From: Escherichia coli
GTDB lineage: Bacteria; Pseudomonadota; Gammaproteobacteria; Enterobacterales; Enterobacteriaceae
DNA: 64,000 bases
NCBI RefSeq assembly: GCF_041886205.1
Contig: NZ_CP169029.1
Direction: 5' to 3' (one strand)
The notes under the pieces are model-generated. The model did no database searches. It was not told where the DNA came from and saw only the letters and a list, made by a program, of their open reading frames with translations. The position numbers were made by a program, and so were the translations under genes. Positions 30,013-64,000 of the stretch are shown one piece after another (position 1 is the stretch's first letter; each line of letters starts with the position of its first letter).

Positions 30013-30100
30013 TTTTGAACATTTCAGGCTATTTTTCTCGCGTTAGGTTCCCGCACAGGTTCCCACGTTTTATGGGAACCCGAAATAACGAGGTCGTGTA

Positions 30101-31198
30101 ATGGCGTACTATAACATAGAGAAACGACTAAAATCCGATGGCACACCACGCTATCGCTGTAATGTGATTATCAAAGAAAAAGGTGTTATCACTTACAGGG
30201 AAAGCAAAACATTCCCTAAACATGCTCATGCCAAAACATGGGGCACACAGAAAGTGATGGAATTAGATCTATATGGCATTCCATCATCAAATGCAGTTGA
30301 CGGACTTACAGTCCGTGACTTACTACACAAATATTTAAATGACCCAAATGCCGGAGGTAAAGCAGGCCGTACTAAAAGATATGTGCTAGAACTGCTTATG
30401 GATAGTGACATCTCCGCGATCAAACTATCTGAACTGACAGAAAATGACGTAATTGAACATTGCAGGCTAAGAAACAACGCTGGCGCAGGTCCAGCAACAG
30501 TCAGCCACGATGTTAGTTATCTTGGTAGTGTTCTGGATGCGGCCAAACCTGTATACGGAATTAATTACACATCAAACCCGGCGAAAAGTGCTCGTCCATA
30601 TCTACTTAAACTTGGTTTGATTGGTAAATCAAACCGTCGTAATCGTAGACCAGCATCTGATGAACTGGACATGCTCATTGAAGGCCTTCAACAACGATCT
30701 ACTCATAAATGCTCAAAAATTCCGTTCGTTGATATCCTCAAATTTTCTGTGTGGTCCTGTATGCGAATCGGAGAAGTATGCCGGTTACGATGGGAAGATC
30801 TCGACCAGGAACAAAAATCTATACTCGTAAGAGACAGGAAAGATCCACGCAAAAAGGAAGGCAACCACATGAAAGTAGCCTTGCTTGGGGAAGCCTGGGA
30901 TATCGTCCAACGACAGCCCCAAAAATCGGAATTCATTTTTCCATATAACAGCACTTCTGTTACTGCGGGATTTCAGAGAGTAAGAAGCAAATTAGGTATT
31001 AAGGATCTGCGATACCATGATTTGCGTAGAGAAGGGGCAAGTCGCTTATTTGAGGCTGGTTTTAGTATTGAGGAAGTCGCCCAGGTTACAGGGCATCGTT
31101 CATTAAACGTGCTATGGCAGGTATATACCGAACTGTATCCGAAATCTTTACATAATCGTTTTGAAGAGCTCCAAAGGAGCAGAAATAAGATCCCTTGA
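30101..31198 (+). CDS. int: Tyrosine site-specific integrase (dusA-targeting type)
   Basis: 365-aa ORF with C-terminal catalytic region (HDLRREGASR ... LWQVYTELY); first phage gene next to the dusA 5' end. Confidence 0.8.
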   Translation: MAYYNIEKRLKSDGTPRYRCNVIIKEKGVITYRESKTFPKHAHAKTWGTQKVMELDLYGIPSSNAVDGLTVRDLLHKYLNDPNAGGKAGRTKRYVLELLMDSDISAIKLSELTENDVIEHCRLRNNAGAGPATVSHDVSYLGSVLDAAKPVYGINYTSNPAKSARPYLLKLGLIGKSNRRNRRPASDELDMLIEGLQQRSTHKCSKIPFVDILKFSVWSCMRIGEVCRLRWEDLDQEQKSILVRDRKDPRKKEGNHMKVALLGEAWDIVQRQPQKSEFIFPYNSTSVTAGFQRVRSKLGIKDLRYHDLRREGASRLFEAGFSIEEVAQVTGHRSLNVLWQVYTELYPKSLHNRFEELQRSRNKIP

Positions 31199-31200
31199 CA

Positions 31201-31244
31201 CTGTTTATCCATACAGTTAAAAATAATACTGTATACAAACACAG
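31201..31244. promoter_or_regulatory. Two tandem LexA (SOS) boxes upstream of the dinI-like gene
   Basis: ctgtttatccatacag (31201-31216) and ctgtatacaaacacag (31229-31244), both CTGT-N8-ACAG; a TTGACA hexamer sits at 31195-31200. Confidence 0.7.
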
Positions 31245-31259
31245 TATAGAGGGACTTTT

Positions 31260-31508
31260 ATGCGTATTGAAATCTGCATAGCCAAAGAAAAAATGACTAA
31301 AATGCCAACCGGTGCTGTGGATGCGTTAAAGGAAGAATTAACCCGACGCATCAGTAAGCGTTATGACGATGTAGAGGTGATCGTAAAAGCCACCAGCAAC
31401 GATGGGCTTTCAGTTACACCTACTGCAGATAAAGATTCAGCTAAAACTTTTGTGCAGGAAACTCTGAAAGATACCTGGGAGTCTGCTGACGAGTGGTTTG
31501 TTCACTAA
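31260..31508 (+). CDS. DinI-family protein (82 aa)
   Basis: [31 protein letters not shown]...[16 protein letters not shown] resembles DinI (MRIEV..., C-terminal ETWESADDWFV). Confidence 0.75.
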
Positions 31509-31511
31509 TTA

Positions 31512-31570
31512 GCACTATCGGAAGTTCACCAGCCAACCGCAGCACGTTTTTGCATACAACGTGCCTGCGG
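31512..31570. repeat. Repeat copy R1 (about 60 bp, hairpin plus T-run; acts as dinI-like terminator)
   Basis: gcactatcggaagttcaccagccaaccgcagcacgtttttgcatacaacgtgcctgcgg followed by ttttt; about 90% identical to 34181-34240. Confidence 0.7.
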
Positions 31571-31731
31571 TTTTTCGAGACTATTCTGACCGTCATACTT
31601 ACACATCAACTTAGCGCCCATCCAGAGAAATTATCTTTTTTGCATTCCGAAGATTCAAAGAGTTAGCCTAATTTTCCAGATAGTTTTCTCGACAAATCTG
31701 AGGTATTTTGGTTATCGATATAGTGCTTTGG

Positions 31732-61990: not shown

Positions 61991-61999
61991 GACCGACCT

Positions 62000-62338
62000 C
62001 TATTTCCCTGAATTTACGACGAAACTGTTCGAGCGGGCTGAAGCACTCATGCTCATAGCCTTCGCGGAGGTAGATAACCCGTTGTGTTTCCGGTTCCCAA
62101 CGAATGACTCTGACGGGCACTCCGTAGTGATCTTTGAACCAGCGGTTAACTTGTTGCAAAGGACTGTCTCCTTCTGCCGGTTGAAATCACCCACAGCCCA
62201 CTCTGCAAAGCTGTGGGTTACAATTTCCCTGTCACCTGGTACATTCACTGCATAGCAATACTCCACCTTCGCTTTTCCACCCGGTACAGGAAGCGCAATC
62301 AGTTGCGAGCGACGGTAGTGTGTTGTTAAACTGTTCAT
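62000..62338 (-). CDS. Hypothetical early-operon protein
   Basis: 112-aa ORF tightly coupled between YdaT-like gene and replication gene. Confidence 0.4.
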
Positions 62339-62919
62339 GCGTTAGTTTCTCCACAACCAGAAGCAATCGACGCCACGACGCCCGGAGCTGCACACTCGCG
62401 GGCGTTACTCTTTTCCGGCGCACAAAAAACACGAAATAACAGTGTTAAATGCTCCTGCCACTTCGCCATTACTTGGTAGCTGTTCTCTTCGATTTGCTCA
62501 CGCTCAGCCTGGTCAATAACTCCATCAGCAGTTGCCTTGCGTAAGTACTGGGAATGCTTGCCAATCCATTCTATTGACTCCATCAGCCGCTGATTAATGT
62601 CACCATTGTCAATGTCATCAATGACCACCAGCGGCACAAACACCCCATTACTACGACGGGCTATTGCATCTGTTACATGCCTGGTACCACTGGCATCCTG
62701 TAAAACCATGGCCCACTCAAGTGGAAAAATTTGATCCCCACCGCTACGCAGTCTGTTATGCAATTGATCTTTTGCTGGGGTGATATCATCAGATTTATAC
62801 AAACCAAGAATTTCTGCTGCTTCCTCATAGCCATGAGGTAAATCAGCAATCGTTCTTCGTATTGCTGCCACCAGCCATGCTGGTTGTTTATCAACTTTCC
62901 ATTCAGGTTCTTTACCCAC
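62335..62919 (-). CDS. YdaT-like protein (cII-position early regulator)
   Basis: 194-aa ORF directly downstream of Cro/YdaS-like gene. Confidence 0.45.
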
Positions 62920-62946
62920 GGTTAATTCCTCATTTCTGTGGTGTTT

Positions 62947-63144
62947 TTATGCCGCAGCACTGTTAGTCTTTTGATATAAAGACACGTCAACTTTCAGTTT
63001 CCCGTTAGTAATTTTTTCTAACTGGTACGCTCGGCCTTCAGGAATAATCTCAGGCCACTCTGAAACAGACGGATGCTTAATACCTAGGGCTTCGGCGGTT
63101 TTACAAACTCCGCCGAAATAATTAATCACGTCGGATTTCCGCAT
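62947..63144 (-). CDS. Cro/YdaS-like HTH repressor
   Basis: 65 aa, HTH (GGVCKTAEALGIKHPSVSEW); divergent from cI across operators. Confidence 0.7.
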   Translation of the reverse strand: MRKSDVINYFGGVCKTAEALGIKHPSVSEWPEIIPEGRAYQLEKITNGKLKVDVSLYQKTNSAAA

Positions 63145-63242
63145 TTCTGTCTCCCGTTAAATTACGTTAAGCAGAAATGTAGGATATCCAACATGCAAAT
63201 GTCAAGAATCCTACATGGGCATGTGGTAGGATTGCCTACATG
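63145..63242. promoter_or_regulatory. OR-like operator/promoter region between cro-like and cI-like genes
   Basis: Three related dyad sites: atgtaggatatccaacatg (63177-63195), gtcaagaatcctacatg (63201-63217), atgtggtaggattgcctacatg (63221-63242). Confidence 0.65.
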
Positions 63243-63893
63243 ATGAACATGAGTGATCGTATTCGCCAAAGGCGAAAAGAACTGAACCTGACACAACAAG
63301 CACTGGCTGATTTGACTGGTGTGAACCGTGTCACGGTTACTGGATGGGAAAAGGACGACTACCAACCAAATGGAGCCAACCTTCAAGCCCTAGCCAACGC
63401 ACTTAAATGCGATCCTCTGTGGCTTGTTAGCGGAAAAGGCTCGCCTGAACCAAAGATAAATCTAAAACCTGAAATATTCGCAGTTAAAAAAGTCCCCCTA
63501 ATCTCGTGGGTTCAGGCGGGTTCATGGACAATGACGGAGCCTGGTGTCAGGAAAGAAGATGCTGAAGAGTGGGTTTATACTACCGCCCTTGTATCAGAAA
63601 TGGCATTTGCACTACGGGTCCGTGGTGATTCAATGACCAATCCCCTCGGCTCACCATCGATACCAGAAGGTTCTATCGTTATCGTAGAGCCAGATATTAT
63701 TGATACAGAGTGTATTAACGGAAAAATCGTTGTTGCCCATATCAATGGTGGGCAAGAAGCGACACTCAAAAAATTTGTTGAGGACTGGCCGAACAGGTAT
63801 CTCGTCCCACTAAATCCTAACTATAAAACTATTGAATGCGGTGAGAACTGCAGAATAGTTGGTCTTGTCAAACAAGTAATAATGGATTTTTGA
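63240..63893 (+). CDS. CI-like repressor (HTH plus S24 LexA-type autopeptidase domain)
   Basis: 217 aa; N-terminal HTH (LTQQALADLTGVNRVTVTGWE), C-terminal S24 with catalytic Ser in RVRGDSMTNP and Lys in TLKKF. Confidence 0.85.
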   Translation: MMNMSDRIRQRRKELNLTQQALADLTGVNRVTVTGWEKDDYQPNGANLQALANALKCDPLWLVSGKGSPEPKINLKPEIFAVKKVPLISWVQAGSWTMTEPGVRKEDAEEWVYTTALVSEMAFALRVRGDSMTNPLGSPSIPEGSIVIVEPDIIDTECINGKIVVAHINGGQEATLKKFVEDWPNRYLVPLNPNYKTIECGENCRIVGLVKQVIMDF

Positions 63894-63955
63894 CACATCT
63901 TCCTCACTATCGCAAAACCGGGGTATCCCCGGTTTTTTTATGAGCCTATCTTTTT

Positions 63956-64000
63956 ATGTAGGATAACCAACATAAACTCTTGACACTCACATGTTGGATA
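63956..64000. promoter_or_regulatory. OL/PL-like operator-promoter region (cut by window end)
   Basis: Operator-type sites atgtaggataaccaacata and catgttggata flanking a TTGACA hexamer (63980-63985). Confidence 0.5.

Follow-up and report, generated by a model that had tools for sequence, protein, structure and literature searches.

A probably intact SfV-like lambdoid myovirus prophage in the 5' end of dusA of Escherichia coli

The SfV-like group consists of lambdoid phages equipped with myovirus tails (PMC3603311), its type being Shigella phage SfV (NC_003444). A family of integrases specific for dusA, together with the replacement of the dusA 5' end that accompanies their insertion, has likewise been described (Farrugia et al. 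2015, PMC4482086); this family spans the Proteobacteria and is associated with very diverse cargo. The e14 Pin and Mu Gin systems, in turn, consist of a serine invertase beside a segment with inverted crossover sites, alternative fibre C-termini and their assembly genes. In the 64,000-nucleotide stretch of E. coli DNA analysed here (the window; assembly GCF_041886205.1, contig NZ_CP169029.1), positions 29909-64000 are the left 34 kb of a prophage lying in the 5' end of dusA. From its sequence, this element is most probably an SfV-like lambdoid myovirus, that is, an ordinary and apparently intact temperate phage of a kind already known. The original prediction contained no mention of this membership in a named and common family with a dusA-specific integrase.

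The closest phage records are Escherichia phage SKA5 (OR670062.1, 37,572 bp), with 97.5% nucleotide identity over 84% of the query, and SfV, with 97.3% over 77%, and synteny holds block by block; a literature search returned no paper on SKA5 or vB_EcoM-720R4. The phage genes are contiguous from the integrase to cI, in the order integrase, tail, head, terminase, lysis, Q, replication, cro and cI (Table 1). SKA5 shares with the element the dusA-type integrase and phage-borne dusA 5' fragment, the cI/cro immunity, the O-like gene, the lysis cassette, the head genes (the capsid protein being 100% identical) and the baseplate, whereas it differs in possessing dam, 4.3 iteron units against 8.3 here, another tape-measure block and other tail-fibre tips, in having neither the IS903-like element nor the SDH protease, and in part of its early-left genes. 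SfV shares the architecture, the cos ends, Q and the DUF968, KilA-N and RusA proteins, with the terminase, head, sheath, tube and baseplate proteins showing about 98-100% amino-acid identity; unlike the element, it contains the gtrABV serotype-conversion genes, dam, an unrelated integrase (22% identity, partial match) and different cI/cro immunity, lysis genes and tape measure, and is devoid of the invertase segment. SfV also integrates at a tRNA gene and not at dusA. Prophages at dusA in TUM9754, ETEC H10407 and wlxctx60 use the same site and integrase and show 97-98.6% identity over most modules, but each is a different mosaic, and the head module of wlxctx60 differs. The chromosomal flank of the window is 100% identical to that of strain wlxctx60, which has a different mosaic at dusA, and no complete RefSeq E. 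coli genome covers more than 82% of window positions 27000-47000.

Table 1. Features of the prophage and of its junction with dusA, in window coordinates
Feature	Position	Strand	Remarks
dusA	28975..30012	-	345 codons, intact; first 104 nt (29909-30012) prophage-supplied
attL core TCGAGCAT	29909..29916		crossover region, true left end of prophage, inside dusA
Tyrosine integrase, dusA-associated type	30101..31198	+	Pfam Phage_integrase
DinI-like protein, cargo	31260..31508	+	RefSeq name in relatives; Pfam DinI in related loci
IS903-like element (IS5 family)	31732..32788	-	intact, 1057 bp, between dinI and SDH protease gene
SDH-family ClpP-fold serine proteinase, cargo	32844..33848	+	Pfam SDH_protease below cut-off; phrog_21683; RefSeq name
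Pin/Gin-type serine DNA invertase	34281..34844	-	Pfam Resolvase + HTH_7; 99-100% identical to relatives
Invertible tail-fibre segment, 1.9 kb	34911..36832		20-nt inverted repeats 34911-34930 and 36813-36832
Tail fibre, 220 aa	36454..37116	-	PHROG tail fibre families; tfa at 35990-36442
Mu-like baseplate genes (gp48/YmfQ, gp47, gp46, gp45, gp44/P, gp43/N homologues)	37120..42162	-	96-100% amino-acid identity to SfV, SKA5
Low-GC cargo gene, 173 aa	42219..42740	-	signal-peptide-like N-terminus; phrog_5586
Tape measure, tail assembly chaperone, tube, sheath, DUF2635 protein	42772..47084	-	
Tail terminator, neck, head-closure, head-tail connector genes	47093..48921	-	
HK97-family major capsid, S78 prohead protease, portal	48955..52064	-	amino-acid identity 100% to SKA5, 99.8-100% to SfV
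Terminase large and small (P27-family) subunits	52164..54397	-	
cos region	54398..54514	-	SfV genome ends map to 54455/54456
HNH endonuclease, packaging accessory	54515..54865	-	domain match
Lysis cassette: two holin-family genes, GH19 endolysin, Rz, overlapping Rz1 lipoprotein	54892..56706	-	
Intrinsic terminator after Q (tR'-like late terminator)	57065..57086	-	108 nt past Q stop codon
Q antiterminator	57194..57946	-	Pfam Antiterm; 99% identical to SfV Q
DUF968/HNHc protein, KilA-N protein, RusA resolvase, small LexA-DNA-binding-domain-only protein	57960..60531	-	
PerC/YfdN-like activator, O-like replication initiator	60498..61990	-	
Iteron array	61558..61681		15-bp unit, 8.3 copies; putative origin inside O-like gene
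YmfM, YmfL (CII/CP76-like), Cro	62000..63144	-	
Right operator region	63177..63241		three predicted 18-bp sites (pseudo-palindromes 63177-63194, 63199-63216, 63224-63241) overlapping minus-strand TTGACA-18-TACATT promoter
cI repressor	63240..63893	+	HTH_3 + Peptidase_S24; Ala-Gly site; GDSM and LKK motifs
Left operator and promoter region	63956..64000		predicted sites 63956-63973 and 63991-64008; second passes window end

The junction with the chromosome lies within dusA itself, an arrangement absent from the original prediction, which had placed the left end at 30013, 104 bp too far to the right. A four-way alignment of attL, attB (from DH5a), attP (from SKA5) and attR (from TUM9754) revealed an 8-bp common core, TCGAGCAT, embedded in about 21 bp of partial identity, so that the direct repeats are semi-conserved, and homology to SKA5 begins at this very core. 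The prophage copy replaces the first 104 nt of dusA, which consequently stays intact; this phage-borne 5' end shares 83% identity with the native one displaced to attR in relatives. The integrase gene begins at a distance of 89 bp from the start codon of dusA, and its product is 99-100% identical to the integrases adjoining dusA in SKA5, TUM9754 and wlxctx60. By this location, and by its 99-100% identity to the integrases that other E. coli genomes carry at dusA, it is assigned to the dusA-associated type. The same integrase-dusA junction occurs in 728 of 5426 complete E. coli genomes, or about 1 in 7. As in the previously described dusA-integrase elements, the integrase lies beside the dusA 5' end, the element supplies a replacement for that end, semi-conserved direct repeats occur at both termini, and a prtN homologue is found near the far end; here, in distinction to the diverse cargo of that family, a complete SfV-like phage is carried. 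The element now has a precise name, and its ends are set by att cores at 29909 and about 70572.

Domain searches of the structural genes agreed with the Mu/e14-like tail, the HK97-like head and the lambdoid control that had been proposed from the sequence. They revealed: 1) a Mu-like contractile tail, with matches to the sheath (Phage_sheath), Tail_tube, DNA_circ_N, GpP-like, Baseplate_J and YmfQ/gp48 families, and with Mu_Gp45, GP46 and Mu_Gp48 assigned to identical genes in related loci; 2) an HK97-family head module (Phage_capsid, Peptidase_S78 and Phage_portal), the capsid protein having an N-terminal delta domain and the module having no separate scaffold gene; and 3) lambdoid control through divergent cI and cro together with Q (P22_Cro, HTH_3 with Peptidase_S24, and Antiterm). 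The cos sequence, which separates the HNH gene from that of the small terminase subunit, hardly differs from the ends of the SfV genome, and cleavage is predicted there. The proposed mosaicism also held, in that the matching relative changes from block to block: the tape-measure block shares 100% protein identity with the TUM9754 prophage and only 24% with SfV and SKA5, the immunity genes resemble those of SKA5 and not those of SfV, and the head genes match SfV and SKA5 and not the wlxctx60 prophage.

The operators, iterons and late terminator of the original prediction were all recovered. A pattern search located three sites between cI and cro as well as left sites, the strict pattern giving 2 matches against 0.02 expected by chance and the degenerate one 8 against 1.24. 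The iteron array falls inside the O-like gene, and the terminator after Q is collinear with the annotated SfV terminator (33675-33710). A lambda-P-like helicase loader was not identified in the element, and SKA5 and SfV are likewise without one. At about 60495-60504 the element is missing dam, which occupies that place in SfV, SKA5 and TUM9754; the original prediction was silent on this loss. We considered it as a possible defect and rejected the idea, since SfIV, which also lacks dam, is still induced and forms plaques (PMC3851460), implying that dam is dispensable.

Taken together, the architecture would combine lambdoid regulation and replication with a head of the HK97 type and a contractile tail of the Mu type, and the window most likely holds the left part of a 40.7-kb SfV-like temperate phage whose life cycle may be outlined as follows. 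The phage's own tyrosine integrase would insert it into the dusA 5' end and substitute the phage copy of the first 104 nt. In the lysogen cI, with its HTH and S24 self-cleaving domains, would occupy three operators on the right and at least two on the left, and so keep the early promoters silent. DNA damage would provoke RecA-stimulated cleavage of cI, and its loss would allow expression of Cro and the early operons, whereupon the O-like initiator is expected to begin replication at the iterons that its own gene contains. Q would then carry transcription past the terminator behind its gene and on into the genes for lysis, terminase, head and tail, and the P27-type terminase with the HNH protein would cut at cos. 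Excision at the TCGAGCAT cores is likely to require the integrase and a factor encoded past the window, probably the PrtN-like protein. From these features we infer that the prophage is inducible, and the strain is probably host to a myovirus that the SOS response can induce and that can mobilise cargo genes. Nothing in the prophage calls for a new explanation, and its importance beyond annotation is small.

The integrity of the genes bears directly on this proposal. All 48 proteins tested received Pfam, PHROG or RefSeq assignments fitting the named modules, and for all except the SDH protease the alignment with a counterpart from SKA5, SfV or a related prophage spans essentially the full length, with no frameshift in the alignments of window genes. 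In 17 conserved genes (13.9 kb) there are no indels and dN/dS is 0.049-0.050 against SKA5 and SfV, while neighbours in the late operon overlap by 1-14 bp or are separated by a few bases, in keeping with the intact and tightly coupled frames initially proposed. The far end does lie outside the window, as had been stated: a public contig (L008) that is 100% identical to window positions 50989-64000, an overlap of 13,012 bp, continues through intact YfdP, YfdQ, YfdR, Ea22-like, DUF551, exonuclease and PrtN-like genes to attR. Frameshifts or missing essential genes in this part had been named as grounds for abandoning the prediction; the early genes are intact in this identically overlapping contig, which is not the window's own sequence. 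Look-ups with the tail-fibre and SDH proteins, intended to tie the contig to the left part of the window, returned other genomes only, and the link therefore rests on the identical overlap. With the far end taken from this contig, the predicted length of the prophage is 40,663 bp.

This length bears on the possibility that the prophage, however intact in appearance, is cryptic and yields no infectious particles, be it that the IS and cargo take it past the capsid limit or that it harbours undetected regulatory or missense lesions. It exceeds by 8-10% the 37.1 and 37.6 kb of the two phages whose capsid protein is identical, and in the nearest larger example, a 40.9-kb phage, the capsid protein is only 94% identical. 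The excess, which stems partly from the 1.06-kb IS and the SDH cargo, could make packaging inefficient, and an intact IS903-like element with its target duplication has not been purged. Against this, relatives of the capsid package 39.5-46.7 kb, the IS sits in an intergenic cargo slot, the cos site, the operators and the att sites at either end have stayed intact, and the essential genes are free of frameshift, truncation or indel at a dN/dS of about 0.05; we accordingly regard a cryptic state as unlikely, while giving it some weight.

Two further readings concern the nature of the interval as a whole. It might combine a prophage with the remains of an earlier resident of dusA, and so not be one phage genome, as could be suspected from a decayed S24-peptidase fragment that follows the SDH gene in relatives and from the dusA-int-dinI-SDH slot, which is found ahead of prophages of two kinds, SfV-like myoviruses and unrelated lambda-like siphoviruses. 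The latter distribution points to modular exchange at the left end; the presence of just one attL and one attR, which have their core in common, that of each module in one copy, and the occurrence of int and dinI within the single 37.6-kb record of SKA5 make such a composite very improbable. The contractile-tail module and lysis cassette also resemble the parts that persist in tailocins, raising the thought of a particle-producing element, either a tailocin or a gene-transfer agent, that the host has domesticated and retained. A complete set of head, portal, terminase, cos, replication, immunity and integration modules under purifying selection, and the patchy occupancy of the site among the 5426 genomes, render this practically negligible. 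An intact temperate phage remains the favoured reading.

Several cargo genes and the IS903-like element would be passengers of this phage. The IS903-like element, absent from the original prediction, displays the hallmarks of the IS903 group, namely 18-bp terminal inverted repeats, a 9-bp target duplication (GTGCTTTGG) and a DDE transposase, and in none of the relatives examined is it present in the slot between dinI and the SDH gene. Gene disruption by this element was considered and rejected because its position is intergenic. The exact SDH protease is on record in 891 collection blocks, and it occupied the dusA-int-dinI-SDH slot in 10 of 10 places inspected. The 173-aa cargo protein is 99% identical to its TUM9754 counterpart and absent from SfV. 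A PADLOC defence search gave no match for the SDH protease, the 173-aa cargo gene, DinI or the small unknowns, and its matches to the KilA-N and LexA-like proteins were weak and partial, and were discounted. It is conceivable, if rather doubtful, that the SDH protease is an exclusion or anti-phage gene travelling with the dusA integration module, with a Panacea-domain pair at the attR end as a possible second such module. The IS903-like insertion, like the loss of dam, is a mark of this particular lineage.

The Pin-type invertible segment, also absent from the original prediction, has the layout of the Gin/Pin/Cin/Hin systems, with the invertase adjoining a segment whose inverted crossover sites lie inside the tail-fibre gene. 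The segment contains the expressed fibre C-terminus with its assembly gene tfa on the minus strand and a silent alternative C-terminus with tfa' on the plus strand. Direct reading of the sequence showed that the fibre frame is open in both orientations, a GLGE frame being common to both crossover sites. Inversion of this segment by the invertase would switch the phage between two tail-fibre tips. While it resembles the e14 Pin and Mu Gin systems in all the respects given above, it differs from them in the combination of fibre tips, its best E. coli match having 74% coverage and 92% identity. In length the tail fibre falls into one class with SfV orf21 and with the fibre of SKA5. Exactly this protein is present in 78 collection blocks, and the orientation of the segment is identical in all related loci returned.

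The prophage in the 5' end of dusA represents an already familiar type, often found in E. coli, and has some details that are specific to its lineage: judged from its sequence, in which every defining feature that can be assessed at this level was found, it belongs to the SfV-like group, described as lambdoid phages with myovirus tails (PMC3603311), and to the elements with dusA-specific integrases. The closest phage record is Escherichia phage SKA5 (97.5% identity, 84% of query), for which a literature search found no publication, followed by Shigella phage SfV (97.3% identity, 77% of query). 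The original prediction of an apparently complete mosaic prophage is supported overall: the combination of Mu-like tail, HK97-like head and lambdoid control that it described is that of the SfV-like group (PMC3603311), and the best relative indeed changes from block to block along the genome. The gene order, taken from the RefSeq annotation of the closest prophage, that of E. coli TUM9754, together with Pfam and PHROG scans, runs without interruption through integrase, DinI-like protein, cargo, a Pin-type invertase with an invertible fibre segment, Mu-like baseplate, tape measure, tube and sheath, connector genes, HK97-family capsid, protease, portal, terminase, HNH protein, lysis cassette, Q, DUF968/KilA-N/RusA/LexA-like genes, a PerC-like gene, O-like initiator, YmfM, YmfL, cro and cI.

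An alignment of four sequences, namely the window junction, the empty dusA of DH5a, the attP region of SKA5 and the right junction of TUM9754, revealed a common core of 8 bp, TCGAGCAT, with host sequence to its left and phage sequence to its right. The core position and this switch place the left end at 29909, and not at 30013 as first proposed; they also imply that the first 104 nt of dusA are phage-supplied. This phage-borne 5' end shares 83% identity with the native copy that it displaced, and dusA is still an open frame of 345 codons, the same behaviour as described for dusA-associated integrases (PMC4482086). Of 5426 complete E. coli genomes, 728 carry the integrase-dusA junction at a query coverage of at least 80%. 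Upstream lies a block identical (100%) to the chromosome of E. coli wlxctx60, containing the core genes nrf operon, acs, actP, soxRS, ssb, uvrA, tyrB and alr, and followed by dnaB, qorA, pspG and dusA, where the prophage starts. Within the core chromosome is a low-GC island (~39% GC) that, in the identical wlxctx60 sequence, is espX5, which encodes a type III effector with pentapeptide repeats.

The far end, correctly expected to lie beyond the window, was read from L008, a public E. coli contig (GCA_036252295.1) found by exact-sequence look-up with the O-like protein and identical to the window over 13,012 bp (100%). The continuation of L008 past this overlap holds a PL-like promoter, the second of the left operators and a series of intact genes: YfdP, YfdQ, YfdR, a 170-aa ORF, Ea22-like, a 101-aa ORF, a DUF551 protein, an Rv2179c-like exonuclease and a PrtN-like gene. 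Just inside attR, a gene with a Panacea domain (SocA-like antitoxin) neighbours one encoding 153 aa; the two possibly constitute a toxin-antitoxin cargo pair, and a related pair occupies this place in TUM9754. After the second core comes the native 5' fragment of dusA. Given the identical overlap, if the genome continues like L008 the prophage would measure 40,663 bp, with 50.4% GC and both ends present.

Coordinates of features of the prophage and its setting (window positions unless stated)
Feature	Position	Remarks
Block identical to wlxctx60	1-25000	
espX5 island	8606-9898	
Left core	29909-29916	
Uninterrupted phage genes	30101-63893	
IS903-like element	31732-32788	1057 bp; inverted ends 18 bp; target duplication 9 bp
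SDH-family protease	32844-33848	
Segment after SDH protease	33849-34280	no ORF of at least 50 aa
Invertible segment	34911-36832	1.9 kb; flanked by 20-nt inverted repeats
phrog_5586 gene	42219-42740	173 aa; low GC
Overlap with L008	50989-64000	
Genome ends (cos)	between 54455 and 54456	
Site of missing dam	~60495-60504	
Iterons	61558-61681	15-bp unit, 8.3 copies
L008 continuation	64001-71990 (window-equivalent)	
Panacea-domain and 153-aa genes	L008 1561-2609 (window-equivalent ~69382-70430)	opposite strand
Second core	70572-70579 (on L008)	TCGAGCAT

The intact frames claimed earlier were recovered on comparison with SKA5, SfV, TUM9754 or wlxctx60: the 48 window proteins tested align essentially over their full length to their counterparts, except the SDH protease cargo gene. 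The alignments of 17 conserved genes (13.9 kb) with SKA5 and SfV are free of indels; set against either phage, ~235 differences are synonymous and 40 non-synonymous (dN/dS ~0.05). Adjacent late genes share 1-14 bp, and the cos region, which separates the HNH gene from that of the small terminase subunit, almost matches the SfV genome ends. At the length inferred with L008, the prophage exceeds by 8-10% the two phages that share its capsid protein; the genome of one phage whose capsid protein is 94% identical measures 40.9 kb, and those of more remote relatives go up to 46.7 kb.

The control sites noted in the original prediction were likewise found. Its operators are 18-bp pseudo-palindromes related to ATGTAGGAT-ATCCTACAT, three between cro and cI and two directly past cI; the strict pattern matches 2 times against 0.02 expected by chance, and the degenerate one 8 times against 1.24. 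The iterons lie within the O-like gene. SKA5 has only 4.3 copies (L003, 10520-10583), and the difference in copy number alters how long a Ser/Asp/Lys-rich linker of the protein is. The late terminator has a 9-bp stem 108 nt past Q, the position at which SfV annotates one. cI combines HTH and S24 domains (Pfam), and its translation displays an Ala-Gly site with GDSM and LKK motifs, as expected for a repressor that would undergo RecA-stimulated self-cleavage.

Three features had been overlooked. An intact IS903-like element lies between dinI and the SDH-family serine proteinase gene in the cargo region; no relative examined has it in this slot, and hence it marks this lineage. SfV, SKA5 and TUM9754 have a dam gene of 654 nt that is cleanly absent here, right at the gene boundaries, so that the PerC-like and LexA-like genes abut; SfIV likewise lacks dam, yet was induced and formed plaques (PMC3851460). 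Inversion of the segment adjoining the serine invertase would exchange the tip of the tail fibre together with the assembly gene that goes with it; the fibre frame stays open in either orientation.

The exact protein of the SDH-family ClpP-fold protease, for which a PADLOC search gave no match, occurs in 891 collection blocks, and in all ten places inspected (L015-L024) it occupies a dusA-int-dinI-SDH slot, followed by SfV-like myovirus prophages in some and lambda-like siphovirus prophages in others. In the segment after it, relatives have an annotated decayed fragment of the S24-peptidase/LexA family, probably a relic of earlier recombination at this prophage end. The phrog_5586 gene, whose product has a signal-peptide-like start, lies in a slot that holds other small genes in relatives, with the tape measure gene on one side and the DNA-circularisation gene on the other.
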